64,000 nt of DNA from Patescibacteria group bacterium. GTDB taxonomy: Bacteria > Patescibacteriota > UBA1384 > CAJBMM01. Where the stretch lies: NCBI GenBank assembly GCA_041660565.1, contig JBAZWC010000001.1, positions 70,197-134,196 on the forward strand, given 5' to 3'. Both the position numbers and the translations under genes were made by a program. Positions within the stretch are counted from its first letter, which is position 1. Every line of letters begins with the position of its first letter. Shown here piece by piece: positions 17,476 to 40,965 of the stretch. The notes beneath the pieces were generated by a model that saw nothing but the letters and a program-made list of their open reading frames with translations, made no database searches and was not told the DNA's origin.

Positions 17476-17481
17476 TCTACT

Positions 17482-18892: not shown

Positions 18893-19185
18893 CCCAAAGC
18901 GTTTTGGTAGTTTTTCGCATAATGAAACTAGCCACTGGGGTGGGGAAGAAAATAAATCTTCCTCACCCAACTGTCCCCCGCAAGAAACGGGGCTGATGAG
19001 TCGTTGAAAATTACGACGAAACAGATAAGGAAATTAAATCAGCTTGAGCGTAAAAAACCAAGCATGCTCACCGACGGATTATAGCCGTTTTGGCACCGCA
19101 AGATTATATAATCGTTTTAGCAATAAGACGGTTGTTACTACCGAATCTTGCGGGACCAAAGCGGCTTTTTGAGTACCAAAATTCT

Positions 19186-19400
19186 AAATCCGAAGCACTA
19201 AATCCGAAGCACTAAATTCGAAACAAATTCGAAATTGAAAATTCAAAATCGTAAAACGGGCGGACATCCCCCTTCGCCACCTCCTACGCTACCTCCTACG
19301 CTAAAGCTTCGGAAGGTCAAGAAAGCTACGGAAGGTCAAGAAGGCTACGGAGGACAAGTATGAGTCCGCCCCTACGGTGCTCGTCAGGCTGACCGTAAGG
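19186..19400. repeat. Microsatellite-like (AAATYCGAAGCACTAAAT) plus GGGCGGACATCCCCC..CCTACGCTAAAGCTTCGGAAGGTCAAGAA..GTCCGCCCC module repeat
   Basis: Module near-identical to 60530-60640 and partly to 6499-6560. Confidence 0.6.
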
Positions 19401-19467
19401 TCTGGTGTTGATCAAAATGAACATATCTGTTAAAATAAGTACATTGGTAGCCAGAATATTAATAATT

Positions 19468-22014: not shown

Positions 22015-23894
22015 CGCACATAAAATCAAATACACTAAAACTAATGACTATTAATCAATACGAACAGCTAGCCAAAAGCTTGCGCTATTGGATTTTGCAG
22101 ATGACCTCTACTGCAGGCTCTGGTCATGTCACATCTTCGCTATCTGCGGTAGAGCTGATGGCCGTTTTGGCATCGCATTATCAATTTGACTTTGACCAGC
22201 CGCAAAATATGCACAATGACCGGTTGATTTTCTCTAAAGGTCACGCCAGTCCTTTATATTACGTGTTGTATGCGTGCATGGGGGCGATTGGCTTTGACGA
22301 GTTGTGGCGTTATCGTCAGCTTGATTCGACGTTGGAAGGGCACCCGACACCGCGATTTAAATACACTGATTTTGCTACCGGATCGTTGGGGATGGGGCTT
22401 GGGTTTGGATCTGGGTTAGCTTTAGGTTTAAGTCGACTTAACTCAACTGGGCGTGTTTTTGTTTTACTCGGCGATGGCGAACTGGCCGAAGGCTCGGTTT
22501 GGGAGAGCGCGGCATTTACCAGCCAGCATCATTTATCAAATCTCACAGCCATTGTGGATGTTAACCGTCTCGGGCAAAGTGCGGCCACGGCATATGGATG
22601 GGATATCAAAACTTATCAGCACAGATTCGAGGCGTTTGGCTGGCACGTAATAACGATCGACGGGCATAATATTAAAGAGATTGATGCTGCTTTCGGTCAG
22701 CTTGACTCACAAAAACCGACGGTTATTTTGGCTAAAACCGTTAAGGGTAAAGGCGTGTCCTACTTAGAAGATGAGCCAAATTGGCACGGCGTAGCATTAT
22801 CTGAGCCAGATCTTGATCAAGCCTTGTGTGAGCTGGGCGTGGTTCAGACTGATTTGACGGTAAAGGTCGCGGCTCCGAAAAAGACTATGTTGTTGCCAGA
22901 TACTACTGTTGCGATCAACGTGGTCGCTTCGGCAAACTCCCTGGGTCGAAATGACAAAGAAGGGGAGGTGCTCTCTCTGCGCCAAGTTTTTGGTCAAACT
23001 TTACAACAAATTTGCAAACAGAATGAAAAAATTATCGTTTTTGATGGCGATGTGGCTAACTCCACTTTCACCGCATTAGTCCGCGATAAACTGCCGGATC
23101 AATTTGTTGAAACTTACATCGCCGAGCAACAGATGATAGATGGCGCCGTCGGTATATCCAAAGCGGGGTTTTATCCGGTTGTCGCCACTTTTGCCGCATT
23201 TCTAACTCGCGCGTTTGATCAAATTCGCATGAGTGCCATATCAAATGCGAATTTACTGATTGTTGGTACTCATACCGGGGTATCGATCGGACAAGACGGA
23301 CCCAGTCAGATGGGGTTGGAAGATGTAGCGATGTTTTCGTCGATTCACCAGTCGACAATCATCTGCCCAGCCGACGCAATATCAACAGCAAAATTATTGC
23401 CAGAATTACTAAATCAAACCGGCATTAAATATTTGCGTCTGTTTCGGCCCGAAGTGCCAGCGCTTTACTCTATGGACGAGAAATTCGAGGTCGGTGGCAG
23501 CAAAATTTTACGAGAAAGCGCGGCCGATGTGGTGGCGATTATCGCCAGCGGGGTCACGGTTCATGAAGCGTTGAAAGCGTACGAAATGCTAAAAAATGAA
23601 AACATTGCGGTTAAAGTGGTAGATGCGTATTCCATTAAACCGATCGATACAGAAACGTTGCATCAAATATCGTCACAGGTAAAATATTTCGTTACGGTGG
23701 AAGACCATCGGTTGCAAGGCGGTTTAGGTGACGCGGTGTTAAACGCGTTTGTTGGCAGTAAATCAATTATCCCGCATATTACCAAATTGGGGATTGATGA
23801 GATTCCGCGTTCGGGCAAGCCTAATCAGCTAATGGACAAATATGGTATTTCCGCCAAAACAATCTATGATACAGTAAAGAAAATACGGAGTTAA
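22015..23894 (+). CDS. tkt: Transketolase (single fused polypeptide; N-terminal TPP domain and C-terminal domains joined by a linker containing a repeat-derived segment)
   Basis: SGHVTSSLS (SGH..S TPP-binding N-terminus), GDGEL motif and C-terminal transketolase-like region. Start placed at ATGATG 22015 because the ORF-track extension to 21966 is encoded by the repeat TIR. In-frame GGGTCGAAATGACA (22932-22945) encodes LGRND. Confidence 0.75.
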
Positions 23895-25276: not shown

Positions 25277-25379
25277 AAAGCAAATTAGGGGGTTAAGGGA
25301 GATTAGGGGGTAATTGGGTTTCCCCTTGTTATTTTACTCAGAGCACATATAATAGAATAGACAGAGGAGGAGCAACAAT

Positions 25380-28300
25380 ATGCATAAAAAATTGAATCAG
25401 TTAAAGGCTGATCTGAAGTTTTGGCTGTGGAAAACTAAGACACTCAACGCCAAAAGATATGTCTCAATTGTAGTATTGGTAGCAATGCTAGTTGGGGTGA
25501 GTATTTACTCACTAGGTGGTATCATCAAAAAAGTGGCGGCTGCTAACGCTGCCAGTGTTAACTTGCAAACCGGATCGATCACTGTTGACGGCGGTAATTT
25601 TTTGCTCGATAGTAACAAATGTCTTTGGACCACCGATTCCACCAGCACTATCTCTGTGGTTCAAAAAGACGGTTCGAATTTAAATTTACCGTATAATTTT
25701 AAGGGTAAGGTTTGTTTTGATGGTGTAATGAGTACCCCTACCACTCCTCAAGACGTAATTGTTCAAAACGGGGGAGTTCTATCTTTAATGGGGTCACACA
25801 CTTTTAAGACGCTTACAGTAAACTCGGGTGGCACAGTTACTCATCCACCAGCTGACGCGAATGGTAAAGCGGTACCGTACGGTTCGCGTTCGTTTATGTA
25901 CGCCATGCGTTTTACATTTTTTGTTAAAGTTGAGGCCCCAGCCGGTGATCCGACAAATATTAAACGGGTTTATCTAAAAGCACCAGACAGTAACGACTCG
26001 ATCGTTATTGAAGCTGGCGGGGGCGCGTTACCCGGAACATCTAGCGTAGATGATCCGGCCGCATTTAATCTTGGTTTAATCTCGTGGCACGCCAACAATG
26101 GCATAGGCTGTAACTTAATGGACGCATCGTTTAGAGCTAGTTCGTCTTGCGGCGGTACGTTACCTGCGGCAAACTTTAATACTGAAGCAGAGGTTGCGGT
26201 GTCGCGTGGTGGTGATTCGGTGCGCTACGTACCAATTAGAGTAACCACATGGCAATCAACATCAGATCAATTCTATAAGGTTGGATATCGAGAAACACTC
26301 CAAATTGGAGCGGGTGCGGAGACTCAGATTGCCAATAACCCACAATATTTACCGATCAGCTATATTTATGGACCATACGAAGGGCCAAGTAGCGAGTCGG
26401 GTACATTAACCGGTGCGGCGGATCCAGCGGCGCAATACAAATCTCGATTCGAATATGCTCAAGCACCAATCGATCAAGCCGATTATTCAAGCTTGGGATC
26501 GAATGGTTGGGGATTAATTAGTAAAGATCTCTCTACTTTTAGAATCTGGTCGTCGTCTCAAAACCGCTATGTCGATCAAGTTGCCAAACCAACCTATTCA
26601 TTCTTTTCTCGGGTTGATTTAACTAACAACGGTACATTTAAAGATTTTGGTAAATACGATTGTACCGGGCATTGCACTAATGTAAACGATGCGTTTTATT
26701 TTGATTATAACGATCCGAGTAGAACCAGTGCCGGTAATCCGTTTTCAAACTCACAGCGTAAAGATGGTTACGGCTATTTGATTGGGGCAAACCCGGGTGC
26801 TTCAACATATGATCCATTGGAGCCAAATGTAGCCTTATTACAAAACTATAAACTACAGACCCACAGTGATGCTGCGCCGGTTATAAAGCCCAGTGTTACG
26901 TTGCATGTTACCGGGGCCGTTACGTTAAACGGCGGCTTAATTGACACCACTAATAAGGGATTACCTGGTGGGTTTACTTACGGTGGTCCAAACAATAGCG
27001 ACAGCAAGTATGGTTTTGCCGGTGTTGGTGGTAAAGGTAATTCATCACCAGGCTGGTGGTACGCTTATGCAGACTGTGATAATAGTAATATTGGTATTCA
27101 GGGTAGTAACTGGTCGGATGGTAATGGTGGTGGTGGCGGCCCAGCCAATAAATCATGTACCGATGTTATTGGTTTAGCAGGCGGCGGTGGCGGTATGGGC
27201 TACGGTGGATCGGGGAAAACCTATGTTGACAGCAACTCTGACAGCGTCTACAACTTAAATAACACAAGAGGAAGTTATTACTCTCACGGTCAAGGTGGGG
27301 CTGGTTTATATGGTATCGGCGGCGGATTTGCTCAAAATTCAGGCACAGGACAATATCAAGCTGTTGCCAATTATGACTCGATGATTCACGGTTATTCATA
27401 TCGTGAAAGATACACCAGTTCAACTGCCGCACTATTAGGTGGCGGTGGTGGTGGAGGTACCGACGCAGGGGCTCCTACTGGAGTATCTCAGCGGTTTGAC
27501 GATGGATCGTTCCCGGCCGGCTCCGGTGGTGGCGCTATTTTGCTAACAGTTGACGGTGATATGACATTATCGGGTAACAGTACAGTCAGTGCTAGCGGTG
27601 GTAACGGATGGGATGTTTCAAATCCAGGAGGTGGCGCCAATCATTATGCAACTACGTCTGGTGGTGGTGGTGGATCAGTCATCCTAAGTGTGAGTGGTAC
27701 CATCAATCTAGCCAACACCTCTATTATTAAAGCAAACGGTGGTAACACTTCTGGCAGATGTTTTGCATCAAGCGGAAATGAATGTGGAGTCCCCGGAGAA
27801 GGTGGCGGCGGTTTGGTTCGAATTACCGCTTCGGTTTTCTCTGGTGATGGCTGGATTTTTGCCCCAAATAATTACTGTGATGTTAATGGCGCTTATGTCG
27901 GAATCTTAAGTAATTCGGTTCAGGCTGCGGCGGGTAGAGGTACGGCTAGCGGAGGCAGTTTGGTTATGGCAGACGGCAGCGATGCCTACGGCCAGGTCTC
28001 GGAACACGGAATCGTTGACCTAAAGTACGCCGGTAATATACCATTCTGTGGTTCGGGGCTTGGGGCTGGTACCGGCATTCAAATCTCAAAACAGATTGAG
28101 CAATTAAGCAGCGCACCAGCCGAAGGTTCAGCGGCCGTAGCAAGCGCGAATGGTAATAATGTGGTCACGGTTACCAACGGATCAATCCTGCGCGTTACTA
28201 TCACTGTTTCCAATCTATCTACAACCAACCAAACTGTTACAATTTCCGATGTTTTACCGAAATCAACTATGACTCTTGGTACTACATCGCCAGCAGTCAC

Positions 28301-29120
28301 CCTTACCTCCGGGCTGCAGTTTGACGGGAGTAACGACTACGTTGTAGTCCCGGGTAATGCTGGTTTACGCATGACCACACTAACCCTTGAAGGTTGGATA
28401 AATACTACATCCGGTGCATCCAGTTATCCGCTTAACTATGGTGCTTACGGTTTCCAAATTAATAAATGGAGCTCAGGCGGTGCACTTAGCCTATTATTTA
28501 CTAATCAGTATGGGGTAGGAGAGGAATGTATATCGAATCGTTCGGTAAATGATGGGAATTGGCATCATATTGCCGGTACTATTGATCAAGCTAATAAAAA
28601 ATATTCTATCTACATCGATGGCGCTCTGAGTAAAGCGTGTACCATGAATGCCAATATTAAATACTCCTCAACCGAATCGTTGTATTTTGGAACTGGTAGT
28701 CCTACTGTTGGAAGGTTTAACGGCAAGTTAAATGAAATTAGGGTTTCAAACAATTTGCGATATACCGGGAATTATACTCCGAGTAATCACTTTAACACCG
28801 ATGCAAACACTATTGGTCTTTGGCACCTAGATGGTGTTGCCGGTAGCACCACTGCTACTGACTCATCCAGCAATGGCAACAATGGAACCCTAATGAATGG
28901 CGCTACTAACTCTCCACCTGCGAATGGTTCAACCGATGGCCCGGTTTGGCTGTACGACCCCGATACTGTTATTCCGCCGGTGAATGGACTGGTTTATGTC
29001 TATAACTCTACCAGCTCCGATTTTACCCCAACAGTATCAAGCGGTAAGTTTTCCCAATCCGGGATTGCGGTTGCTGCCGGTTCGTACACCATTCTAAGAT
29101 ATGTCACAGTAATTAAATAA
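25380..29120 (+). CDS. Very large (1246 aa) secreted/anchored glycine-rich repeat protein (beta-helix-like GGxGG tracts) with C-terminal LamG/concanavalin-A-like lectin domain
   Basis: N-terminal hydrophobic anchor; tracts GGGGGPANK, GGGGGMGYGGSG, LLGGGGGGGTDAG, SGGGGGSVIL; C-terminal LQFDGSNDYVVVPGN...LTLEGWIN...GNWHHIAG typical of LamG_3. Confidence 0.55.
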   Translation: MHKKLNQLKADLKFWLWKTKTLNAKRYVSIVVLVAMLVGVSIYSLGGIIKKVAAANAASVNLQTGSITVDGGNFLLDSNKCLWTTDSTSTISVVQKDGSNLNLPYNFKGKVCFDGVMSTPTTPQDVIVQNGGVLSLMGSHTFKTLTVNSGGTVTHPPADANGKAVPYGSRSFMYAMRFTFFVKVEAPAGDPTNIKRVYLKAPDSNDSIVIEAGGGALPGTSSVDDPAAFNLGLISWHANNGIGCNLMDASFRASSSCGGTLPAANFNTEAEVAVSRGGDSVRYVPIRVTTWQSTSDQFYKVGYRETLQIGAGAETQIANNPQYLPISYIYGPYEGPSSESGTLTGAADPAAQYKSRFEYAQAPIDQADYSSLGSNGWGLISKDLSTFRIWSSSQNRYVDQVAKPTYSFFSRVDLTNNGTFKDFGKYDCTGHCTNVNDAFYFDYNDPSRTSAGNPFSNSQRKDGYGYLIGANPGASTYDPLEPNVALLQNYKLQTHSDAAPVIKPSVTLHVTGAVTLNGGLIDTTNKGLPGGFTYGGPNNSDSKYGFAGVGGKGNSSPGWWYAYADCDNSNIGIQGSNWSDGNGGGGGPANKSCTDVIGLAGGGGGMGYGGSGKTYVDSNSDSVYNLNNTRGSYYSHGQGGAGLYGIGGGFAQNSGTGQYQAVANYDSMIHGYSYRERYTSSTAALLGGGGGGGTDAGAPTGVSQRFDDGSFPAGSGGGAILLTVDGDMTLSGNSTVSASGGNGWDVSNPGGGANHYATTSGGGGGSVILSVSGTINLANTSIIKANGGNTSGRCFASSGNECGVPGEGGGGLVRITASVFSGDGWIFAPNNYCDVNGAYVGILSNSVQAAAGRGTASGGSLVMADGSDAYGQVSEHGIVDLKYAGNIPFCGSGLGAGTGIQISKQIEQLSSAPAEGSAAVASANGNNVVTVTNGSILRVTITVSNLSTTNQTVTISDVLPKSTMTLGTTSPAVTLTSGLQFDGSNDYVVVPGNAGLRMTTLTLEGWINTTSGASSYPLNYGAYGFQINKWSSGGALSLLFTNQYGVGEECISNRSVNDGNWHHIAGTIDQANKKYSIYIDGALSKACTMNANIKYSSTESLYFGTGSPTVGRFNGKLNEIRVSNNLRYTGNYTPSNHFNTDANTIGLWHLDGVAGSTTATDSSSNGNNGTLMNGATNSPPANGSTDGPVWLYDPDTVIPPVNGLVYVYNSTSSDFTPTVSSGKFSQSGIAVAAGSYTILRYVTVIK

Positions 29121-29122
29121 TT

Positions 29123-30898
29123 ATGATGAAAACTTTACAGCAAAAAATTTCATTCTGGCTAATAGTTCTGGCATGTATCAGTTTGTCTGGGGTGATAAGT
29201 GCTATACCAAAATCACGCGCAGGTAGCTTAATTGCCATTACCAAATCTATCATCAATACCGCCGCGGCGGTCAACACCGATGCTAGCTATAGTTCAGTAG
29301 TTTCGGCGGTTAGCTCAAGCGATGTGTTGTTAGTTACGGTTACCGTAACTAACTACGGGTCTTCGCCAACTGTCACTATTAACGATAGTTATGCCGGTTT
29401 TTCTACTCCGGTTACAAATGGGACCGTCAGTGATACCGCGTTAGGATGGAGCGGTGGTGGTGGCTCATTTAGCTCAGTTAACAGTGTTCTGACTGTCACA
29501 TCGCCAACAATGGTTAGTGGTACCACTAAAAGTTTCTCCTACACCATTACCCCAGCTAATATGCCAAATAACAAACCTAGAATGTTGGCTCTACCAATTT
29601 CTACCACCTCATCTAATTTTGGTATAAGCCAAATGATGGACACGGTATATGTAATGGAATTGCCGAATTCAAGTGCGGCTGGTAGTTCGTTTGTGGCAAA
29701 TACTTATAACAACGCCAGTGGTGGAATTGACCTAAGTTTTGTGGTTCCGGCGGTGAGTGTTCTAATTGGCAACACCACGCTTTACAGCTCAACTACTACT
29801 CTATCTACACCAAAACAAGATTCAACCGTTACCGGAAATAATTCAACTGATTGTAATAGCATTACCATTAGTTACTCCCGTGGAGGTAGCTGTATGTACA
29901 ATACAACGGCTACGGTATCCACTGTAATCAACGCTAAAACTGTCACGGTTGGTAGCGCTTCGGCACAGGTGATGACGGTTCCACCAAGTGCAATTGTTGG
30001 GAACATCAAGGTTGGGGGGTCAACAGCGGCTGTTGGTAACGTTTTATTACCTGGCCAACATCTTAGCAGTAATACCGATAGTTCGTCTGCATCACAAAGT
30101 ATTGCGTATAGTATCGACTCAAATTCTGTCAGTGGATTGAAGGGTTCCGGAGACTCCGATGTTTTTGGTAACGTGTATCTAGATGCAAATCTGGCATTAG
30201 CCAAACGAAACCCTGACTTTTTGTTAGATAACGCCAGCTATACCTCATATGGAGACTTAATTAATGTTGGGGAAAGTAACATAAGTTTATCGTGTGCGGC
30301 TGGTGCGGGTAACAACTGTGGTGCCGGTGGTACTCCGGCAACTGCCAAATATGTGTTATCTGCTAAAAACGGCCTAAATTTTGACCTAAGCTCCATAAAA
30401 ATGTCTAACATTACATCTACGCCAAAAAACCCAAAGAACAGCGGCTATCTCTGGTATGTTAAGGGTGATCTTACTATTACCGGATTAGTTGCAAGCACCA
30501 CCATTACGAATGTTGGAATTGGTACCATATTTGTAGAAGGCAAACTAATAATTTCCGATCTTTCCGTTTCTGCCACTGGTAAGCCACTTGGGTTTATTGC
30601 AACCAACGGGATTGAATGGAAAATTGATAGAGCCGATGTTACTTCATCCACTTTAAATTCCGTGGCTTTCTTTAGTAACCTAGACTTTACAGCTTCCACC
30701 ATCGCCGCAAGTCAATCGCTGAAACTGGTCGGTAGTGTCGTGGCTCGTCAAACTGTTAGTTTTGCAGATGTAAAATTACCCAATATTTCGGATAATTTAA
30801 ATTTGTTAATTCAGTATGACCAAGCCTTAACCACAAATCCTCCTCCACGTATGTCAAAATTGGCTACTCAGCCAAGTGCAAGTGGCGTATCACAATAA
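29123..30898 (+). CDS. Secreted Ser/Thr-rich hypothetical protein (591 aa)
   Basis: Signal peptide LIVLACISLSGVISA; extremely S/T/N/V-rich, low-complexity. Confidence 0.5.
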   Translation: MMKTLQQKISFWLIVLACISLSGVISAIPKSRAGSLIAITKSIINTAAAVNTDASYSSVVSAVSSSDVLLVTVTVTNYGSSPTVTINDSYAGFSTPVTNGTVSDTALGWSGGGGSFSSVNSVLTVTSPTMVSGTTKSFSYTITPANMPNNKPRMLALPISTTSSNFGISQMMDTVYVMELPNSSAAGSSFVANTYNNASGGIDLSFVVPAVSVLIGNTTLYSSTTTLSTPKQDSTVTGNNSTDCNSITISYSRGGSCMYNTTATVSTVINAKTVTVGSASAQVMTVPPSAIVGNIKVGGSTAAVGNVLLPGQHLSSNTDSSSASQSIAYSIDSNSVSGLKGSGDSDVFGNVYLDANLALAKRNPDFLLDNASYTSYGDLINVGESNISLSCAAGAGNNCGAGGTPATAKYVLSAKNGLNFDLSSIKMSNITSTPKNPKNSGYLWYVKGDLTITGLVASTTITNVGIGTIFVEGKLIISDLSVSATGKPLGFIATNGIEWKIDRADVTSSTLNSVAFFSNLDFTASTIAASQSLKLVGSVVARQTVSFADVKLPNISDNLNLLIQYDQALTTNPPPRMSKLATQPSASGVSQ

Positions 30899-31100
30899 CG
30901 CCAAATTATAAATTTTAATAAGTTCGAATAAACGTAGACCACGCTTTAGCGTGTTTGGAAAACAGACTGACCTCCTACGCCAAGGCTACGGATGGTCAAG
31001 AAGTCTGGACTACGATCTTTAGAATTTACTTTGTTGTTACTTGCGCAATCATTAAGTATTGTCATATAATTAATAGTAGGAAATAGAGGGGCCAAACAGT

Positions 31101-31841
31101 ATGATAGATGTCGATCTGGTAACAAAACCAGGGTCTAATCAGCCTTTTCAGGGTGAGTCTTATTGGGGGATCGCCACTATTGTGGTGATTGTCTGTACTG
31201 TCGCGTCACTTGGTTTGCTAGGCTGGTATGTAATGAAAAATTCTTCTACTAAACAAAAGATCGCAAACCAAACCACTGAATCTGCCCGACTAGATGGTGA
31301 AATTTTGGCTGCCAATAAATGGCCGGTTGATACGGTTGAATTGCGATCAAAAGATCTGTTAGGTAGTTTAACCGAATATAAAACTTTGTTAAACAGTCGA
31401 CAGGCGTGGAGCAGAATTTTGCCGGTGGTTTCAGCTTCTACCCTAAATGGAATTAATCTAACCGGAATGAGCATAGATGGAAAACTCGCTCTCAAAATTG
31501 ATGGTACCGCATCCCCTATAAGCGGTGTGGATAACATTACGGCGTATGGAATGGTAGCTAGGCAGGTTATCTCATATCAAAATGCCAAAATTACTATATC
31601 TGATACGTCTGGCGCAACATCCACCACAGAAGTAGCCCCGGTGCTGGTATTTAGCAATGTGGCGTTGACCGCAATTAGTAAAAATTCCAAAGCAGCCACG
31701 CAAGACGCAACTCCAATAGACTCGGCGTTGTTCTCAATTAGCTTAAGCTTGAATCCCGAGATTGTTAAAGAATCGCCGCTTGCACTTCCGTCTACCACCA
31801 CTACTGCTTCACCGTCACCTAGTGCATCAGCTACCCCATAA
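31101..31841 (+). CDS. PilN-like pilus assembly membrane protein (tentative)
   Basis: Short cytoplasmic N-terminus, single TM (IATIVVIVCTVASLGLLGWYV), periplasmic domain; position directly upstream of the PilO-like gene. Confidence 0.35.
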   Translation: MIDVDLVTKPGSNQPFQGESYWGIATIVVIVCTVASLGLLGWYVMKNSSTKQKIANQTTESARLDGEILAANKWPVDTVELRSKDLLGSLTEYKTLLNSRQAWSRILPVVSASTLNGINLTGMSIDGKLALKIDGTASPISGVDNITAYGMVARQVISYQNAKITISDTSGATSTTEVAPVLVFSNVALTAISKNSKAATQDATPIDSALFSISLSLNPEIVKESPLALPSTTTTASPSPSASATP

Positions 31842-31856
31842 AACGAAAGGGATATT

Positions 31857-32453
31857 GTGACCAAGCAACAAAAAAATATTATCATGATTGCAATTCTGGT
31901 AGTTTTGAGTGCTTTTGCGCTTATCCAACTTTGGATTGGCCCGCTACTGCAAACAAATTTGACCCAGCTAAATCAGCTTAACGCAGATGTTAACGCAAAA
32001 ACTGCTCGCTTAAACACTATTAACAAGATTAAAGCGCCGTTAGCCGACCTGGAATCTGCAATGAGTGATATCGATAAAGTTGGTTTGCCAAAAGGAAACT
32101 CGTTGCCAGACTTAATTGAGCAAGTGGAAAATATTGTCGCCGGTACAAAAGATGCCGCCAGCAACCAACCATATTTTTCTGTTACCTCGTTTGTTCCTAA
32201 CTTAACCAACGCAGTTAACTCGGCGGGGGCGTCGGCATCAGCTAACTCGCTAGATTTCACCTTGGCTGTTAGAGGAAACCCAGACAATCTTGCTATATTA
32301 CTAGACGCGTTTAACAAGAACGTCCGCCCAATGTCAGTAAAAAGTATGACGCTTGCCCCCGATTCTACTTCTAGTGATGTGTTAGTAACCCTAACTATGA
32401 CGGCGTATAATGGTGCCGCATCGTCAACAAAATCTTCCACCGCAAGTCAATAA
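31857..32453 (+). CDS. PilO-like pilus assembly protein (tentative)
   Basis: N-terminal TM plus coiled-coil (LTQLNQLNADVNAKTARLNTINK) architecture typical of PilO. Confidence 0.4.
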   Translation: MTKQQKNIIMIAILVVLSAFALIQLWIGPLLQTNLTQLNQLNADVNAKTARLNTINKIKAPLADLESAMSDIDKVGLPKGNSLPDLIEQVENIVAGTKDAASNQPYFSVTSFVPNLTNAVNSAGASASANSLDFTLAVRGNPDNLAILLDAFNKNVRPMSVKSMTLAPDSTSSDVLVTLTMTAYNGAASSTKSSTASQ

Positions 32454-32471: not shown

Positions 32472-32744
32472 ATGAAAAAATATATTCCAATTATCGTTAG
32501 CGTACTAATGGTTTTGGTGGTGGTAGGCGCCTTTGTGTATCAAAGAGGACTCTTTTTAGCTAGTCCGAGTATGGAACCGGTAATTACCAGTTCAACAACC
32601 GCTGATTTGTCGGCTGAATCAATTACCAGCGCCAAAAAAATGGCTGACTTGTATAAATCAAGCCTAAATAAAGTATCGTCAGTTCCGATTTCAATTGATA
32701 CTTTAAGCACTAACCCGAAGCCGTTATTTAAAGTTTCAGAATAG
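32472..32744 (+). CDS. Small membrane-anchored hypothetical protein
   Basis: 90 aa, N-terminal TM helix. Confidence 0.35.
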   Translation: MKKYIPIIVSVLMVLVVVGAFVYQRGLFLASPSMEPVITSSTTADLSAESITSAKKMADLYKSSLNKVSSVPISIDTLSTNPKPLFKVSE

Positions 32745-32751: not shown

Positions 32752-35670
32752 ATGAGTGCGTGGCCAATCAAAAATGAAACTCAAAGCCGGGTTTTAAAGT
32801 TATTATCAACCTTGGTTGATTTAGGTTTTGTTAAATCTGAAGTAATTGACAACTTAAGAGCTGAGCTAAAACCGCTTCCATCCGAGGTTGAGCTGGTTGA
32901 GTATTTAGTTAAGCATTTGATTGCCGATTACGACCAGATTAATCGCGCCTATGCCACCTTATTAAAATTACCGTATTTGCAACTACCACAAGAGGTAAAT
33001 AAAGCGTCGCTCATAAAATTACCAAAAGCTGTTTGTGAAGAAAAACAGATGGTGGTTTATGGGACAAATGACAAAGAATGGGATATTGCGGTGGCAAAGC
33101 CGGCTTTATTGCAGGAGAGCCAATCCGGTGTTCTGACTAAATTATCTAAAGCAGAAAAGATCAAATATAAAATCGTAATTACTTCGCCTGATTCAATAAA
33201 AAGATGGCTTAATCAGTATCCGGATCAGAGGACGGAGGACGGAGGACAGAAGACAGAATCATCTCTGTCATTTCGACCCGGGGAGCTGGTTCGAGCGACC
33301 ACGTTGGAGAAATCTCAAGAAAGAATCCCTTCCACTTTAGCCAATTCAGAAAAAGCGGCGTTGATTGGTCGAGCGATTGACCCGAAAGTACTACATAAGA
33401 TTCCGGTGGCCATCGCAAAAGACGTTGGCATTATTGCATATCAGTTTAGAGATAATGTTTTTGAAGTTGCAACAGTAGATCCAATGAGTCAAAAAGTACT
33501 AAACGCTGTTCATTACATTCAAGATCATAACAACGTTAAAATCAATTTACACCATACATCGCGTGACGATATTGATTACGCTATTTCGCAGTATGGGCTT
33601 CATGACCGCATCTTTAACCAAAAAAATCTGTCCGGGCAGAAAATTGATCACGAGCTTTTGTTAAAAATACCTTACAATGTGGCAAAAAAGTATCGTTTTG
33701 TGGTGTTTGGTAAGATCATTACAAGCCAAGGATTAACTGACAATTCAATTTATCAAGTTGCGTCAGACAATCTAAATAATGCCGAGGCAAATATTATTTG
33801 GGGTTATATTGAAAAGAATAACGGGGTTACCCTGTATTTGTACCCAACCGATATCGGTAGCATTGACTACGCGTTGTCTTTATATCCGGAAACAACCGAT
33901 CACAAAGAACAGCTCGCGTTACCGGGCGTTAAAAAAGCTGAGTGGTTATTGCCGCCACCCGTTCCTCATAATCCAGTCCCTGCAACAGCAGCGGTAGTTA
34001 AACCGCAAGCCAAGCCTAACCCTCAAAACGAACAACCTTTGCCGCCCACAGATATACCGGAAGAAAAGCCATCTTTCTGGCCCAAATGGTTAGTTTCATT
34101 GTTTGGTGGTAAAAAAGACAACGAGATTATAATTTCGGAAGATCTTATCTCGCCACCAGGTACTGTACCGAACGCGGCTACATCGGCAATGTTAGGAAAT
34201 CCAAATCCAACTCAACCGCCAATACCGGTGCCGACAAAACCGGCAGAGGTAAAACCACCCGAACAAAAACCACCGAGTCCTGCTCCTGTTCCTCCAAAAC
34301 CCCCTGAAGAGGTGGCAATAGAGCAAAAGACATTTATTCTTAAGACTAAAGAACCCTATGGCGCCAAAGAGAAAGAAGCTGCCCCAAAGCCGGTGGGGGA
34401 AGAAGACGAAGATAACTTAGGGAGCTTGCTTGACCACGATGTAACTACTCTGGAAGAACTGCAGAAGATAATTCAAGAAGGATTTGTACCACGAGTGGTG
34501 GCAGCGCTAGTCAGTTATGCCATCACTTTACACGCCTCAGACGTTCATATCGAAGCAGAAGAAAAAGATGTCCGCGTGCGTTATCGTGTGGATGGTATGT
34601 TGCAAGACGTAATGCGATTACCGGTAGAACAACACGCTGCCATTATTAGTCGTATTAAAATATTGTCCAAGCTGAAAATTGACGAAACTCGTATTCCTCA
34701 AGATGGGCGATTTGACGTAGCGTTTAAAGATCGTGCGGTCGATTTGCGTGTATCATCTATGCCAACGGTGCATGGTGAAAAGATAGTTATGCGTATTTTA
34801 GACAAGACGCATGGTATCATGTCACTGGAAGATTTGGGTGTACTGGGTAGAGCATTTGACATTGTTATCGAAGCCATTAAAAAACCATATGGCATTGTGC
34901 TTTCAACTGGTCCAACCGGATCTGGAAAATCCACCACTTTGTATGCCATTTTAAACCGAATCTCGGTGCCTACGGTCAACGTAATCACACTTGAAGATCC
35001 GGTTGAGTATGAAATAGCCGGGGTTAACCAAGCGCAGATCAAACCAAAAATTGGTTTCACTTTTGCAGAAGGGTTAAGATCGGTTTTGCGCCAAGACCCA
35101 AATATCGTGATGGTGGGAGAGATTCGAGACGCTGAAACCGCCAGCATGGCTACCCACGCAGCCTTAACCGGTCACTTAGTATTATCTACCCTACACACCA
35201 ATGATGCTCCTGGTGCCCTACCACGTCTAATAAATATGGGTATTGAGCCATTCCTAATTACCTCGTCAATTAACTGCGTTGAAGCTCAGCGCCTGGTTCG
35301 TCGAATCTGTCCGAACTGTAAAGAAGAAGTTGAGCTGCCGGAAACGGTTATTAAAGAGATCACCGATGAGCTCAATAAGATACCGGAAAATAATCCCAAA
35401 GATCGTGCCCGGGTGACAAATCCGATGAAGTTCTATCACGGTAAAGGATGCGACAAGTGTCAAAACGGATATCGTGGGCGAATTGGTATTTACGAAGTGA
35501 TGGCCATGAGCGAAAAGGTGGAGCAACTGGCAATCGAAAAAGCATCTGCCGCCTCTATTCAAGCTCAGGCAATTAAAGAAGGCATGATTACCATGAAGCA
35601 AGACGGATTGCTAAAAGCACTAATTGGTATGACCACGGTTGATGAAGTGTTACGCGAAACCTCGGAGTAG
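32752..35670 (+). CDS. pilB: Type IV pilus assembly ATPase PilB/GspE family with extended N-terminal region (about 600 aa: repeated T2SSE_N-like segments and a Pro-rich linker)
   Basis: Walker A GPTGSGKSTT, Walker B/Asp box, His box, tetracysteine CPNC...CDKC; contains an in-frame repeat insertion at 33229-33336. Confidence 0.85.
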   Translation: MSAWPIKNETQSRVLKLLSTLVDLGFVKSEVIDNLRAELKPLPSEVELVEYLVKHLIADYDQINRAYATLLKLPYLQLPQEVNKASLIKLPKAVCEEKQMVVYGTNDKEWDIAVAKPALLQESQSGVLTKLSKAEKIKYKIVITSPDSIKRWLNQYPDQRTEDGGQKTESSLSFRPGELVRATTLEKSQERIPSTLANSEKAALIGRAIDPKVLHKIPVAIAKDVGIIAYQFRDNVFEVATVDPMSQKVLNAVHYIQDHNNVKINLHHTSRDDIDYAISQYGLHDRIFNQKNLSGQKIDHELLLKIPYNVAKKYRFVVFGKIITSQGLTDNSIYQVASDNLNNAEANIIWGYIEKNNGVTLYLYPTDIGSIDYALSLYPETTDHKEQLALPGVKKAEWLLPPPVPHNPVPATAAVVKPQAKPNPQNEQPLPPTDIPEEKPSFWPKWLVSLFGGKKDNEIIISEDLISPPGTVPNAATSAMLGNPNPTQPPIPVPTKPAEVKPPEQKPPSPAPVPPKPPEEVAIEQKTFILKTKEPYGAKEKEAAPKPVGEEDEDNLGSLLDHDVTTLEELQKIIQEGFVPRVVAALVSYAITLHASDVHIEAEEKDVRVRYRVDGMLQDVMRLPVEQHAAIISRIKILSKLKIDETRIPQDGRFDVAFKDRAVDLRVSSMPTVHGEKIVMRILDKTHGIMSLEDLGVLGRAFDIVIEAIKKPYGIVLSTGPTGSGKSTTLYAILNRISVPTVNVITLEDPVEYEIAGVNQAQIKPKIGFTFAEGLRSVLRQDPNIVMVGEIRDAETASMATHAALTGHLVLSTLHTNDAPGALPRLINMGIEPFLITSSINCVEAQRLVRRICPNCKEEVELPETVIKEITDELNKIPENNPKDRARVTNPMKFYHGKGCDKCQNGYRGRIGIYEVMAMSEKVEQLAIEKASAASIQAQAIKEGMITMKQDGLLKALIGMTTVDEVLRETSE
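33229..33336. repeat. In-frame repeat insertion within pilB: (GGACGGAGGAC)x3 microsatellite plus TGTCATTTCGACCCGGGGAGCTGGTTCGAGCGACCACGTTGGAGAAATCTCAAGAAAGAATCCCTTCC
   Basis: About 95% identical to the intergenic copy at 37072-37141; translated as ...QRTEDGGQKTESSLSFRPGELVRATTLEKSQERIPS... without interrupting the reading frame. Confidence 0.7.
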
Positions 35671-35688
35671 GCGGAGAGCGCAATTATT

Positions 35689-35872
35689 TGTCATTTCGAC
35701 CCGAGGAGATCGTCAGATCGACTACGTTGGCCTCCGGCTCGTAGACCCTCCGGGCGTAAGTCCTACGGGCTGGAGCCTACGGCTCGGAGAGAGAAATCTA
35801 AGCAAGAATCCCTTCCAGTTTTTTTTAAGATTTCTCCAACCGTTCGTGGAAGCTCACGGGGTCGAAATGACA
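35689..35872. repeat. Large composite palindromic element (TGTCATTTCGAC TIRs enclosing a CTACGG module and AGAAATCT..AGATTTCTCC)
   Basis: Read directly, between pilB and pilT. Confidence 0.7.
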
Positions 35873-35946
35873 GGTATTGGCATTTGCACAACCATCATTC
35901 TTAGCGTTATACTTAAGATGAAGTATCTTTTGAGGAGGGATAATTT

Positions 35947-37014
35947 ATGTCAGTTAATATGATTCCAGAAATGGAGCGTTTGCTTGATCAAACGATCGCA
36001 GCTAAGGCTTCGGACTTGCATATTGTAGTGGGTATCAACCCGACAATTAGAATTGATGGCGAGCTAACCCCACTAATGGACGAACCGTTAGTTGATGCCA
36101 AAATGGCCCAAACGCTTGTAACTGGAATACTTGACGCGGAGATGAATGACTCGTTGAATCAGCGCAAAGAAATTGACTTTTCTTTCGGTTATAAAGAGTA
36201 TCGTTTTCGTGCCAATGCCTATTTTCAAAGTAGTACTTACGCGTTGTCTCTTCGATTAATTACGCTGGAAATTCGGAATTTTACTCAATTAGGTTTGCCA
36301 CCGGTATTGGAACGATTTGCAGCCAGTGGGCAAGGATTAGTCATTATCACCGGTCCAACCGGGCATGGCAAATCCACCACCTTGGCCGCTATGATCAATC
36401 AAATTAACGAAGATCGCCGCGACCGTATCATCACCATAGAAGATCCTATTGAATACGTGTTTAAGCATAAAAAATCAATTGTTACCCAACGAGAGCTGGG
36501 GCAAGATACAAATTCATTTTCGCGAGCACTGCGAGCGGCGCTACGTGAAGATCCTGATGTGGTGCTAGTGGGTGAAATGCGAGATCTAGAGACAGTTGAA
36601 GCAGCCTTAACCATCGCTGAAACCGGTCACTTGGTATTTACCACCCTACACACCAACTCGGCTGCTCAAACCGCCGATCGTATTATCGACATTTTCCCGC
36701 CACACCAACAAGCGCAGGTTCGAGCCCAGTTAGCCAGCGTGCTACTCGGCGTGGTATCGCAGCGTTTAATCGCTAAAATTGGTGGTGGGCGTACGGTGGC
36801 GGTTGAGTTAATGATCGCTAACTCGGCGGTGCGAAACACTATTCGTGAAGGTAAAACTCACCAATTGCCAAACATTATTCAAACCAGTGCTGCCGAGGGT
36901 ATGATAAGCTTAGACAAAGTCTTGGCCGAATTGGTCAGTAAGGGTGATATTACAATTGATAATGCCTTATTATGGTCCATGGATCCGAAAGCATTAAAAA
37001 TGATGGTTTATTGA
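35947..37014 (+). CDS. pilT: Twitching-motility (retraction) ATPase PilT
   Basis: 355 aa; Walker A GPTGHGKSTT, PilT-type motifs; lacks the zinc tetracysteine of PilB. Confidence 0.85.
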   Translation: MSVNMIPEMERLLDQTIAAKASDLHIVVGINPTIRIDGELTPLMDEPLVDAKMAQTLVTGILDAEMNDSLNQRKEIDFSFGYKEYRFRANAYFQSSTYALSLRLITLEIRNFTQLGLPPVLERFAASGQGLVIITGPTGHGKSTTLAAMINQINEDRRDRIITIEDPIEYVFKHKKSIVTQRELGQDTNSFSRALRAALREDPDVVLVGEMRDLETVEAALTIAETGHLVFTTLHTNSAAQTADRIIDIFPPHQQAQVRAQLASVLLGVVSQRLIAKIGGGRTVAVELMIANSAVRNTIREGKTHQLPNIIQTSAAEGMISLDKVLAELVSKGDITIDNALLWSMDPKALKMMVY

Positions 37015-37071
37015 TAATAATTTGAAATTTGAAATTTGAAATTTTTAAACCATAAGGAATTGTTTTTCAGT

Positions 37072-37141
37072 TGTCATTTCGACCCGGGGAGCTGGTTTGA
37101 GCGACCACGTTGGAGAAATCTAAGAATAAATCCCTTCCAAG
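37072..37141. repeat. Half-element repeat (same sequence as the pilB in-frame insert)
   Basis: ttgtcatttcgacccggggagctggtttgagcgaccacgttggagaaatctaagaataaatcccttcc. Confidence 0.65.
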
Positions 37142-37203
37142 ATTCTACCACGCCCCAACATCCCCAATTTCCCTAACCACCCTAACGTAATCTTGGAGTC
37201 ACA

Positions 37204-38403
37204 TTGGCAAAATTTGTCTACGAAGCAAAAAACGATCAAGGGCAGCTGGTACGCGGCATGGTTGTTGCGCCTAACGAATCTGCTGCCGAAAAATTATTGC
37301 AACGCAATCGTTTTGTTGTGACGTCATTAGAAGTTGGTAAATCGCCTTTTTCAGCCATAAACATTTTTAATAAAGTTGGAGTACGTGATCGTGCGCAGTT
37401 TGCGCGTCAGTTAGCCACCATGATCTCTGCTGGCTTGCCATTGGTACAAGCCCTAAACATTATCACCATGCAAACTCGTCAACCAAAAATGCATACTATT
37501 TTAGCGTCGGTGGTGCGAGACATTGAAAGCGGGTTCAGTTTTTCTACCGCGCTTGCAAAGCACACCGAGGCGTTTGATAGCGTTTTTATCGCCATCGTTA
37601 GATCTGGTGAGGCCACCGGTAAACTCGATCAGGTATTGCTCGAGTTAGCAGATCAATCTGAAAAAGACGCGTCGTTTTCCGGAAAAATTAAAGGCGCATT
37701 AGCTTATCCGGCATTTATCATCTGCGCTATGATTGGTGTTGCTATTTTAATGATGACTCAGGTTATCCCAACCATAAAAGCAGTTTTCGAAGAAGCAAAC
37801 GCTCAGTTGCCATTTGCCACCAGAATGTTGATTATCGCATCTGACTATATGGTTGAGTTTTGGTACATTGTGATTGTGGCTGTAATTGGGTTTGTGGTTG
37901 CGGCGCGATTGTTTTTAATGTCCAAGCCAGGCAAATTAATGTTAGATAAACTAGCGCTCCATGCTCCGATATTTTCACAAACCGCAACCAGCATCATTAT
38001 GGCCAGGCTAACCCGTACTCTAGGTCTGCTGGTTGGCTCTGGAATTCCAATTCTCGAATCAATTAGCATTGTCTCCGAGGTTATTAATAATAATATATAT
38101 AAAGAAGGCCTAAGAGAGGTGAGGGCGCAAGTTGAGCGTGGTATTCCAATGAGCGTGCCGTTGTTAAAAAACAAAGAATTTCCGGTATTATTTGGGCAAA
38201 TGGTCTCGGTAGGTGAGCAAACCGGACGAATTGATGCAATGCTTGCCAATCTGGCCAAGTTTTATTCCGAAGACTCTGATACAAAATTAAAAGGAATGAC
38301 TACGCTAATCGAGCCTGTCGTGATGGTTATCTTGGGTGTGGGCGTGGCGTTTCTAATATTTGCTATTCTAGTGCCAATTTACAACATCTCAAGCATAGGA
38401 TAG
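37204..38403 (+). CDS. pilC: Type IV pilus inner-membrane platform protein PilC (GspF family)
   Basis: 399 aa, two GspF-like repeats, 3 TM helices. Confidence 0.8.
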   Translation: MAKFVYEAKNDQGQLVRGMVVAPNESAAEKLLQRNRFVVTSLEVGKSPFSAINIFNKVGVRDRAQFARQLATMISAGLPLVQALNIITMQTRQPKMHTILASVVRDIESGFSFSTALAKHTEAFDSVFIAIVRSGEATGKLDQVLLELADQSEKDASFSGKIKGALAYPAFIICAMIGVAILMMTQVIPTIKAVFEEANAQLPFATRMLIIASDYMVEFWYIVIVAVIGFVVAARLFLMSKPGKLMLDKLALHAPIFSQTATSIIMARLTRTLGLLVGSGIPILESISIVSEVINNNIYKEGLREVRAQVERGIPMSVPLLKNKEFPVLFGQMVSVGEQTGRIDAMLANLAKFYSEDSDTKLKGMTTLIEPVVMVILGVGVAFLIFAILVPIYNISSIG

Positions 38404-38411
38404 TGATTTGG

Positions 38412-38490
38412 TGTCATTCCGGGCTTGACCCGGAATCTATATAAAAAAATTTTTGTTCGAGGTGCCCGTCCCGAGAACTGTGAGATGCAT
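38412..38490. repeat. GTCATTCCGGGCTTGACCCGGAATCTATATAAAAAAA unit plus GTTCGAGGTG..GAGAAC fragment
   Basis: Family copies elsewhere. Confidence 0.55.
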
Positions 38491-38654
38491 CATGTCAGTC
38501 AACAGCGAATATTTCATAATTATCGTCAGATAATTTCGAGACAAAGCGAGCCAAGCGAACTGTCTCAAAGCGAACAATCTTCATTAACATGGTATTGTGT
38601 GTTAGTTTAGTGGTAAAATATATATGGTATGTAAATTGAAAAAAGGAGGCTATC

Positions 38655-39170
38655 GTGCAAAATAAAAAGGCTTTTACTTTGATCGAACTATTGGTGGTTA
38701 TCGCCATTATTGGTATTTTGGCGGCTATTGCTCTTAACGCTACTACCAGTGCGAGGCGTCGTGCTGCAGACGCTCAGGTAAAATCGAACGCGCAGGCGTA
38801 TCTTAAAGCGTGGATTTCGTACTCGTCTGACAGCTCCATGTTTAACGTCGCTGCACAAGGAGTAGGAAACGTCACTCTAAGAGGGGTTCAGGGTTGGCAA
38901 AACACTACTTTTAGAACCAGTGGTGATTTAACTGCCGCTGCTGGGTTATACAGTGCATCAAACCCTGACGTTGCTTCGCCGTATGATATTACAAATCCAA
39001 AGTATGACGACCGAAATTTCACTGCTACTGCGATTGCGGTTGGAGGGGCGCTTACTGCTAACCCTGCTGCTACTGCTGCGGGTCCTATTGTTGCGGGTGG
39101 TCAGGCCAACATCGATAGCATTTTTACCGCGCCGGCCGGTGGAAAATGGTTTGTTGTGACTCAAAGATAG
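38655..39170 (+). CDS. pilA: Type IV major pilin (PilA-like), paralog 1
   Basis: Prepilin leader MQNKKA-G/FTLIELLVVIAIIGILAAIALN with Glu at position +5. Confidence 0.8.
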   Translation: MQNKKAFTLIELLVVIAIIGILAAIALNATTSARRRAADAQVKSNAQAYLKAWISYSSDSSMFNVAAQGVGNVTLRGVQGWQNTTFRTSGDLTAAAGLYSASNPDVASPYDITNPKYDDRNFTATAIAVGGALTANPAATAAGPIVAGGQANIDSIFTAPAGGKWFVVTQR

Positions 39171-39334
39171 TAGTTATCCACAGGCATTCGTTGGAATGAC
39201 GCTTGTTATCATATACAATTAAATAGGATTATTAAAATTGCTCCCGGTAGGGGTGGGTTTATTCCACTCGTGGAGGGACGGTCGATGCAGTTTTGTGATA
39301 TTTTAATCAAATTATTTTAAAGGAGTTTCTTATT

Positions 39335-39817
39335 ATGAAAAAAGCTTTTACCTTAATTGAGCTTTTAGTGGTCATCGCCATCATTGGTATTTTGGCCGCT
39401 ATTGCTCTTAACGCTACTACCAGTGCACGACGTCGAGCGTCAGATGCTCAAGTCAAATCAAACGCGCAATCAGCACTGAAGGCGTGGGTTTCATATTCGT
39501 CTGACAACTCGTTATTCTACACACCTGTTGCTGCTGCTGCCACAACAGTGGCGCGTGCCGACTTTACCACTGCTGCAACTGGCTTAGATGCGGTGTTAAC
39601 TGCAGACCTGCGCACCGGTATGACAGCAAGTTTGTATGGTGGCCATGATGGTACGGGTGCCGGAACATTTAGTTCAAACGTGATTGGCGTGGGTGGAGCG
39701 CTAACAGCTAATCCAGCTACGGGTGCAAACGGAATTGTCGCTGGAAACGGTGCCACAGACGGTATTACCGCTGGTGGTGCAGCTACCGACGAATGGTTCT
39801 TAGTTACACAAAGATAA
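39335..39817 (+). CDS. pilA: Type IV major pilin (PilA-like), paralog 2
   Basis: MKKA-FTLIELLVVIAIIGILAAIALNATTSARRRA; first about 55 residues near-identical to paralog 1, C-terminal halves divergent. Confidence 0.8.
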   Translation: MKKAFTLIELLVVIAIIGILAAIALNATTSARRRASDAQVKSNAQSALKAWVSYSSDNSLFYTPVAAAATTVARADFTTAATGLDAVLTADLRTGMTASLYGGHDGTGAGTFSSNVIGVGGALTANPATGANGIVAGNGATDGITAGGAATDEWFLVTQR

Positions 39818-39828
39818 TATTTATTATC

Positions 39829-39900
39829 TAACTGTCCATCTCTGCGTCATTGTTGTGTCGCGTAATGCGATGCTCTCTGACGCCGAGGGGACAGTTTTAT
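39829..39900 (+). terminator. Rho-independent terminator after the pilin genes
   Basis: CTGTCC..GCGTCA // TGACGC..GGACAG long inverted repeat followed by TTTTATT. Confidence 0.5.
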
Positions 39901-39912
39901 TGAGGAGGGGAT

Positions 39913-40662: not shown

Positions 40663-40704
40663 ATACTTTAGGGGTGTTGGGGTGATTTGGGGAGTTGTGA
40701 AAAA

Positions 40705-40913: not shown

Positions 40914-40965
40914 CATGTGAATCAAAATATATGTTACAATAAACGTAACACCGGAGGGGATTAAT

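Follow-up and report, generated by a model that had tools for sequence, protein, structure and literature searches.

Two exported proteins encoded ahead of the type IV pilus genes in a group of Patescibacteria

A gene pair at the head of a pilus locus

We examined a 64,000-nucleotide stretch of DNA (hereafter the window) from a tiny groundwater bacterium of the Patescibacteria group (NCBI GenBank assembly GCA_041660565.1, contig JBAZWC010000001.1, positions 70,197 to 134,196 of the forward strand), in which two genes for large and hitherto uncharacterised exported proteins lie upstream of the genes for a type IV pilus. These two plus-strand open reading frames (ORFs) occupy positions 25380-29120 and 29123-30898, encode products of 1246 and 591 amino acids (aa) and are separated by 2 nucleotides (nt), as a first-pass annotation made from the sequence alone had stated. 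Both genes are real, with homologues elsewhere at 27-38% identity. The 1246-aa surface protein is the founding member, distinguished by a LamG insertion, of a rare Patescibacteria family, and the gene for its 591-aa exported partner is the next gene after the large one in every case. The sequence evidence is best explained if the pair is a constant, lineage-restricted component of the type IV pilus locus of this Patescibacteria group and both of its products are exported. The two proteins had been called giant, a label that holds only in relative terms; the window also codes for an RHS protein of 2125 aa.

Ahead of the large gene, on the plus strand, are a promoter-like site (TTGTTA-16-TATAAT; 25326-25353), which is a near-consensus match only, and the Shine-Dalgarno sequence GGAGGAG (25366-25372). 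Each of the two proteins has a single hydrophobic segment, which is N-terminal, and none further along, so the remainder of both is predicted to be extracytoplasmic, in agreement with the earlier suggestion that they are secreted. The same topology extends to all five proteins encoded upstream of pilB, which have exactly one N-terminal hydrophobic segment apiece. The large protein is rich in glycine (14.5%) and its partner in serine (16.1%) and threonine (10.8%). We rejected anchoring by sortase because the LPXTG signal is not present.

The large protein begins with a basic and aromatic tail of 27 residues that is predicted to be cytoplasmic (aa 1-27; 25380-25460, plus strand) and carries the motif K-A-D-V-R-F-W-L-W-K-A-R-T..R-Y (family motif KADVRFWLWKART..RY). 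This is the best-conserved segment of the family: its mean pairwise identity is 50%, against 21-40% across the other parts of the protein. In all the DNA that we fetched, the motif occurs once per locus, solely at the start of members of the large-protein family. The tail stands ahead of a hydrophobic stretch of ~21 residues, the only hydrophobic segment of the protein (placed at aa 28-50; 25461-25529, plus strand), which could act as a signal anchor or form the h-region of an extended signal peptide, and a conserved small-x-small (AxA-like) motif follows. Together, tail and stretch would be either a signal anchor, with a partner for the tail in the cytoplasm, or an extended signal peptide of a specialised kind.

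Beyond this segment, alignment of the family by eye suggests a beta-rich N-terminal region with a PA14/GLEYA-like motif (..RFTGF.KL....DD..v.e.g..; ~aa 141-330; 25800-26369, plus strand), which we treat as a lead only. The GLEYA profile matched one of nine members, under the cut-off (E 0.046), and the PA14-like motif was otherwise recognised by eye. Towards the C-terminus, the family alignment places the first half of an Ig-like (DUF11/TIGR01451-type) domain at aa 901-975 (28080-28304, plus strand). Here DUF11 (PF01345) matched one of nine members, under threshold (E 0.0065), and one source names the relative P0007 a 'TIGR01451 family' protein. These profile hints of a PA14-like module and a DUF11-type Ig-like end domain are weak, and they agree with the alignment by eye.

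Between these parts lies the Gly-tract region (aa 545-830; 27012-27869, plus strand), in which poly-Gly tracts are invariant across the family alignment and the segments between them are hypervariable, indel-rich loops. The tracts themselves are as real as had been proposed, but the regular spacing of 60-90 aa once ascribed to them is not: runs of at least four Gly begin at aa 583, 601, 687, 761 and 808, at irregular spacings of 18, 86, 74 and 47, and all fall within aa 583-811 (~230 aa). Once Gly-Gly columns are removed, identity over aa 561-710 is 15%. The part that follows, aa 711-830, is made up of units of the form GGGG-h-x-h-x-h..G.h.h...S.h.A.GG.

A LamG_3/concanavalin A-like domain (PF13385; aa 982-1125; 28323-28754, plus strand) was matched with an E value of 4.6e-17 and a score of 63 bits against a cut-off of 27.6. 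With its linkers (~aa 976-1200) it is inserted between strands of the C-terminal Ig-like DUF11-type domain, an insertion that is unique to this genome and absent from all nine of the aligned relatives. The final Ig-like strands (aa 1205-1246; 28992-29117, plus strand) lie past the LamG domain and realign with the C-termini of relatives (TPTVSSG.. versus TPTVSGQ.. in P0011). The lectin-like domain seen in the first-pass annotation is therefore genuine, but its supposed terminal position was wrong, as the last ~40 residues of the protein belong to the family scaffold. Since the lectin domain is not family-wide, carbohydrate binding cannot be the conserved role.

AlphaFold prediction of the large protein (aa 47-1246, from a nine-sequence alignment) gave a mean pLDDT of 51. 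Parts of aa 57-216 were confident, with the beta-rich N-terminal region partly at pLDDT 62-90, and strand stacks at aa 716-740, 762-788 and 808-820 reached pLDDT 64-91. Confidence was low over the Gly-loop region (aa 550-710) and over LamG, where the alignment had no rows. Foldseek found no match to the fold of this model in the PDB (best E 0.42). The beta-helix proposed from the Gly tracts was thus not confirmed by structure prediction, although the sequence pattern keeps it plausible.

The 591-aa protein opens with a Sec-type signal peptide, as indicated by topology prediction and alignment (aa 1 to ~33; 29123-29221, plus strand). This is followed by a predicted Ig-like beta-sandwich (~aa 37-160; 29231-29602, plus strand) and by a putative C-terminal beta-solenoid (~aa 440-565; 30440-30817, plus strand), the best-predicted and best-conserved part of the protein. 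Signal peptide and low complexity both agree with the earlier description. The protein has no prepilin motif, and we rejected lipoprotein status because a lipobox-like VLAC is not conserved among orthologues. The AlphaFold model (six sequences) had a mean pLDDT of 51.8, with values of 75-88 over aa 440-555, and Foldseek matched it to Ig-like sandwiches (CLIPPER, integrin and macroglobulin domains) at E values of ~1e-3 to 1e-2. We read the model as an Ig-like domain plus a C-terminal beta-solenoid. A resemblance of the solenoid to ComZ is suggestive, not specific: that match is not clearly better than those to unrelated solenoids.

A rare family in a constant place

An exhaustive search of 1.84 billion cluster representatives returned 13 matches to the large protein. 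Eight of them (P0002, P0005-P0010 and the weaker P0011) are related over the full length, at 921-978 aa, and among the others are P0014 (900 aa, more distant), two fragments and P0013 (5520 aa, 25 stretches), which we set aside as a spurious match to an SWWY repeat. A word-indexed search recovered the window protein itself (listed as 'LamG domain-containing protein' from a metagenome-assembled genome of the Patescibacteria group, with a contig of 516 kb) and one relative at 32% identity. The same kind of search, also run with a profile, found no relative of the 591-aa protein; low-complexity words saturated its candidate list. Scans of species-representative genomes and metagenome contigs, of which the genome scan with a five-sequence alignment gave four loci, added only L009/L015, the truncated and distant L010, and duplicates. 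Both L010 (10001-11463) and P0014 (L012) are more distant family members with PA14-like and Gly-rich patterns; L010 keeps the N-tail motif, and the contigs of both end inside or at the gene. The large-protein family has ~10 members among the 1.84 billion representatives, all Patescibacteria; where a record names an organism, the label is Candidatus Berkelbacteria or, in one case, Saccharibacteria. It is very rare and confined to one lineage.

Neither protein matched NCBIfam or PHROGs, and profile and sequence searches of solved structures returned only noise for the pair. Among the viral contigs scanned, none encodes a relative of the large protein, so its derivation from a phage receptor-binding protein is not supported.

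Full context was available in five further genomes: L004, L005/L006, L007, L008 (the P0007 contig) and L015 (the L009 contig). In each of them, genes for a ~950-aa protein, a ~600-aa protein, a ~240-aa PilN-like protein, a ~200-aa PilO-like protein and a ~90-aa protein precede pilB and pilT, in this order and on one strand, and pilC comes next in L004, L005 and L015, the loci reaching that far. The linkage between a large surface protein and the pilus genes that had been proposed from the window is therefore conserved. Three more short contigs retain just the pair, which is present in L001, L004, L005, L007, L008, L013, L014 and L015. In every contig reaching far enough, the gene after the large one encodes 568-617 aa, and the ~600-aa products are homologous to the 591-aa protein of the window (27-39% identity, where compared). 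No family member was seen in another context where the contig was long enough.

The region just upstream of the pair, with genes for transketolase and Nramp, is unstable in relatives. Compared with the window, L004, L005, L008, L014 and L015 have Nramp in the opposite orientation and L007 has no Nramp; the transketolase gene is reversed in L004 and L008. An inserted methyltransferase gene is found in L005, L007, L014 and L001, and L005 has an additional gene between transketolase and Nramp. That the stretch from the pair to the pilus genes stayed unbroken while this flank was rearranged is moderate evidence for selection on the linkage.

Identity to the window is 77-86% for PilT, 66-72% for PilC, 65-71% for Nramp and 49-58% for transketolase; this last value indicates that the genomes showing the linkage are not close kin of the window's organism. 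For the remaining proteins it is 31-43% (PilN-like), 34-41% (PilO-like), 26-41% (90-aa protein), 27-38% (591-aa protein) and 31-33% (large protein). The pair thus diverges far faster than the cytoplasmic parts of the pilus (27-38% against 77-86% for PilT), as do the extracytoplasmic PilN-like and PilO-like proteins.

Spacing divides the locus into two blocks. The large gene and the ~600-aa gene are 2-35 nt apart in full-context loci and 71 nt apart in L013, and in most loci the PilN-like, PilO-like, ~90-aa and pilB genes overlap or are no more than ~10 nt apart; L007 has 81 nt ahead of pilB. Between the ~600-aa gene and the PilN-like gene, every genome has a gap of 71-517 nt, inside which L008 carries a small inserted ORF. 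In the window this gap ahead of the pilus-machinery genes is 202 nt long (30899-31100, plus strand) and holds a copy of an interspersed repeat (30970-31006) and a perfect TATAAT (31065-31070). Over the same interval we found no terminator-like hairpin after the 591-aa gene, and the RNA fold is not unusual (z -1.25). With a gap in every genome and a TATAAT in the window, co-transcription of the pair with the pilN, pilO and pilB genes, which had been raised as a possibility, is doubtful. Two adjacent transcription units, possibly with read-through, appear likelier than a single tight operon.

Pilus genes and other features of the window

The first gene after the gap encodes a bitopic protein of 246 aa (31101-31841, plus strand), and the second a protein of 198 aa (31857-32453, plus strand). 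The two had been annotated as PilN-like and PilO-like. For the 198-aa protein this assignment is supported by PF04350, weakly in the window (E 3e-3; 18 bits, under the 22-bit cut-off) and by a clear precomputed PilO match in the L015 orthologue. For the 246-aa protein, position and topology are the only grounds for the name PilN-like: it has no match to PilN (PF05137) in Pfam or NCBIfam, and its N-terminus is poorly conserved among orthologues. Paralogy of the PilN-like and PilO-like families was not established (hhalign probability 17%). Between the PilO-like gene and pilB lies a gene for a 90-aa protein with a single transmembrane segment (32472-32744, plus strand), which is kept in the five full loci at 86-98 aa and 26-41% identity and belongs to no known family.

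From 32752 to 44741, on the plus strand, follow pilB, pilT, pilC, two pilA genes, pilD, three Glu5 minor pilins and a PilX/PilK-like gene, and the previously annotated order, pilB-pilT-pilC-pilA-pilA-pilD and then the minor pilins, was correct. PilB (32752-35670) is unusually long and has 972 aa (934-998 in relatives), two matched MshEN stretches and a T2SSE domain, with a Pro-rich linker of ~150 aa before the ATPase; only its C-terminal ~425 aa are highly conserved (82% to L008). The pilin profile PF07963 matches the pilins at 38655, 39335, 40966 and 42797, the last two just under the cut-off, and matches neither protein of the pair, whose N-termini have no prepilin motif. The minor pilins lie at 40966-44741, and the 360-aa PilX/PilK-like protein (43659-44741) lacks Glu5. 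Just past them is a gene for a 598-aa protein (45295-47091, plus strand) whose N-terminus resembles a lipobox (..ATVGCGGGGGG) and which shows a weak Big_7 Ig domain; local GC is raised here (50-54%), and the position is that of the PilY1-type gene in other systems.

The pilus genes had been described as lacking pilM. This holds only for the operon and for the 64-kb window, where no PilM-like gene (PF11104-type, ~350 aa) was found among the scanned ORFs of at least 300 aa, and there was none among the called genes within 10 kb in L004, L005, L007 and L015. We rejected a 386-aa ORF at 17732-18892 as a hidden PilM, as it has neither actin-fold motifs nor a Pfam match.

The window also contains three families of repeats. 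A short palindromic interspersed repeat (TGTCATTTCGACCCGGGGAG...CGTTGGAGAAATCT), mostly intergenic, has copies at 13284, 21962, 35689, 35832, 37072, 49158 and 62435. Two further copies lie in frame in variable interdomain linkers, one in pilB (33266-33315) and one in the transketolase gene (22916-22956). The copy in PilB is translated as SLSFRPGELVRATTLEKSQE and falls in a stretch of ~25 aa that the L004 and L008 orthologues do not have. Rickettsia in-frame palindromic elements are a parallel. The other two families are TGTCATTCCGGGCTTGACCCGGAATC and ACCTCCTACGCTAAAGCTTCGGAAGGTCAAGAA, the latter being the one that has a copy at 30970-31006, ahead of the PilN-like gene.

Between holB/Fic and a transfer RNA (tRNA) cluster, positions ~13300-19450 form an island of 58-59% GC, compared with ~44% for the genome; the same site measures only ~1-1.4 kb in the relatives L005 and L015. 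The island holds about five plus-strand ORFs with no Pfam match, separated by four conserved elements of ~70-190 nt, each a GC-rich hairpin followed by CTCATTCCAAAGTTTCCAAAAGGTTGGGGACTTTGTAGATGA (15045, 15767, 16717 and 17483), and looks like an inserted array of foreign cassettes. At its 3' end, right after the 386-aa ORF, is a hammerhead type III ribozyme-like motif (18968-19027, plus strand) with an intact catalytic core (CUGAUGAG...CGAAAC...GUC), which scored 41.8 bits, below the Rfam gathering score of 48.5 (E 1e-6 in a 6-kb search). After a tRNA-Pro gene (6229-6305), its 3' half recurs in two partial copies (6347-6397 and 6449-6499; 69-71% identity), a pattern that repeated integration at this tRNA would leave. 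On the minus strand, the 2125-aa RHS-repeat protein (52784-59161; PF05593, E 3e-77, 10 stretches; DUF6531) has two small ORFs downstream (51815-52774 and 51165-51791), one with a faint Imm11 match; these are probably a polymorphic toxin and its immunity genes.

Possible roles of the pair

Three findings are firm: the gene order is conserved, the family is rare, and its cytoplasmic tail is conserved. Tentatively, and with somewhat less than even confidence, we favour reading the pair as a lineage-specific, pilus-associated surface or receptor-binding module. We infer from the sequences that the two proteins are exposed at the surface, are coupled to the pilus physically or functionally and serve adhesion, and it is gene order together with domain content that suggests a role in binding a host. 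The large protein would present, in order, a cytoplasmic tail, a membrane segment, a PA14-like beta-rich region, poly-Gly tracts with hypervariable loops and an Ig-like domain, interrupted by LamG in this genome; its partner would comprise a cleavable signal peptide, an Ig-like domain and a C-terminal beta-solenoid. The two would act together at the surface as a receptor-binding (adhesion) complex, in concert with the retractile pilus, and would recognise host-cell structures, in this genome glycans; PilB and PilT would extend and retract the fibre, bringing cells together. The LamG insertion would be a recent, genome-specific switch of binding specificity.

Patescibacteria bind their hosts through type IV pili and large accessory or tip proteins, and in the Saccharibacteria strain TM7x large minor pilins with accessory domains have been proposed as host-binding tip proteins, with host glycans implicated (PMC11623550). 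Lectin modules (PF13385, carbohydrate-binding) and solenoid modules are known on pilus-presented proteins (PMC8179133), and the attachment of PilC/PilY1 (and, as modelled, of MshQ) to the tip depends on a C-terminal strand with which they complete a PilK-type pilin (PMC12918778). By analogy, the pair resembles these pilus-tied exported binding proteins in kind, without detectable homology. Shared with the PilY1/PilC tip adhesins are large size in a non-pilin (~1000-1200 aa), a Sec signal, a gene in a pilus locus and variable binding domains on a conserved scaffold. However, nine members of the large-protein family and six of its partner's had no Pfam or NCBIfam match to the PilY1/PilC beta-propeller, the large gene lies ~12 kb upstream of the minor pilins rather than beside a PilK-type pilin, and the C-terminus of the large protein falls within an Ig-like domain rather than forming a free strand.

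MshQ of the MSHA pilus carries LamG-type domains. It is likewise a non-pilin of ~1200 residues encoded in a pilus locus and proposed to sit on the tip complex (PMC12918778), but its gene follows the minor pilin genes, no sequence relationship was found, and LamG is here an accessory insertion of one genome. From modular pilins, such as Streptococcus sanguinis PilC with its concanavalin A-like lectin module and Thermus ComZ with its beta-solenoid, the pair differs in having no class III (prepilin) signal peptide and no pilin module. Polyglycine-tract receptor-binding domains occur in the T-even phage adhesin gp38 and in the glycine-rich domain of ALK/LTK. With the large protein they may share the alternation of Gly tracts, here invariant, with hypervariable segments; the large protein differs in that its sequence matches no solved structure and no PHROG, and its downstream part looks more like stacked beta-strands.

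Several observations weigh against a receptor-binding module. LamG is found in one member only, and the family, uniform in length and collinear in architecture, looks more like a component of a machine than like a modular adhesin. A prepilin signal and a PilY1-type propeller are missing from both proteins, and their genes are not neighbours of the minor pilin genes; both structure models have a mean pLDDT of ~51-52. The constant gap and the perfect -10 box in the window imply that the two units may be transcribed separately. Finally, the entire neighbourhood, transketolase and Nramp included, is broadly syntenic in relatives, which weakens the argument from gene order, as part of the linkage may be simple inheritance.

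Comparison with the pilus loci of other Patescibacteria raises a different prospect. In these bacteria pilM, pilN, pilO, pilC, pilB and pilT usually co-localise and the secretin is absent (PMC6744442), and both machinery loci of TM7x have PilM-PilN-PilO (PMC11623550). The locus described here shares with them PilN-like, PilO-like, PilB, PilT, PilC, PilD and pilin genes and the lack of a secretin (PMC6744442, PMC11623550). It differs in that its operon has no pilM, whose usual place is held by the two exported proteins, and in having the extra conserved 90-aa membrane protein and a PilB of 972 aa. The pair could accordingly consist of structural parts of the pilus machine, forming a collar or conduit outside the cell that passes through wall and S-layer, or belonging to the alignment complex, with the tail contacting the motor or platform and doing the work of PilM, PilP or PilQ. 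Single copy number and the invariable architecture of all members would suit such parts, as would the occupation of pilM's usual site (PMC6744442, PMC11623550), the lack of a pilM in the operon or within 10 kb of any locus, a best-conserved tail (50%) that is unique to the family, and the bitopic topology of all five proteins upstream of pilB. We nevertheless consider this explanation unlikely: identities of 31-38%, hypervariable loops and a lineage-specific lectin insertion better fit an exposed binding protein, no known machine component is similar to either protein, pilM may sit elsewhere in the genome, and the pair may form a transcription unit of its own.

To the same low degree we entertain the idea that these are ordinary proteins of the cell surface, functionally unconnected with the pilus, whose adjacency is synteny inherited in a small clade. 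Transketolase and Nramp, which are unrelated to the pilus, also stay adjacent in most relatives, and every known member comes from one narrow lineage. The pair has its own promoter-like site and strong ribosome-binding site, and the gap of 71-517 nt may give the pilus genes a promoter of their own. Yet inherited synteny alone does not readily account for upstream neighbours that are repeatedly inverted, lost or interrupted beside a junction between pair and pilus genes that is never broken and keeps its strand, nor for the lack of any member in another context where the contig is long enough. If this were nonetheless the case, the result would be a mere annotation gain for a rare family.

A bolder reading, which we hold to be quite improbable, makes the large protein a membrane-anchored subunit of a pilus machine that lacks PilM, with its tail docking on PilB, PilT or PilC and its poly-Gly and lectin ectodomain reading the host. 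Were it true, receptor recognition would be wired directly to pilus extension and retraction, and the 591-aa solenoid protein would be the extracellular partner.

Some type IVb pili and type II secretion systems export proteins encoded in their own operons. The Sec-type N-termini of both proteins and the location of their genes within the locus are consistent with such cargo, exported or presented by a pilus-like machine in the manner of a type IVb pilus colonisation factor or of type II secretion, but we regard this as very unlikely. Patescibacteria are without an outer membrane and secretin (PMC6744442), so that Sec alone would release both proteins, and the large protein presumably stays anchored, given its long hydrophobic segment and its conserved tail in the cytoplasm. 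Least probable of all, and barely credible, is that the two are S-layer or general envelope proteins, for despite a Gly/Ser/Thr-rich composition, a strong ribosome-binding site and a promoter-like site, we detected no S-layer-type domains, an S-layer protein would not be expected to conserve a cytoplasmic tail, and the family is far too rare for a general envelope solution.

Much of bacterial diversity belongs to the Patescibacteria, which live attached to other microbes, and little is known of how they recognise hosts beyond a few cultured Saccharibacteria, in which type IV pili and large tip proteins are important. In this locus, the pair is a concrete and conserved candidate for host recognition by an uncultured lineage. 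An operon without the usual pilM and a conserved cytoplasmic tail on a mostly extracellular protein are useful handles on it, and the LamG insertion may serve as a natural domain swap that points to glycan targets.

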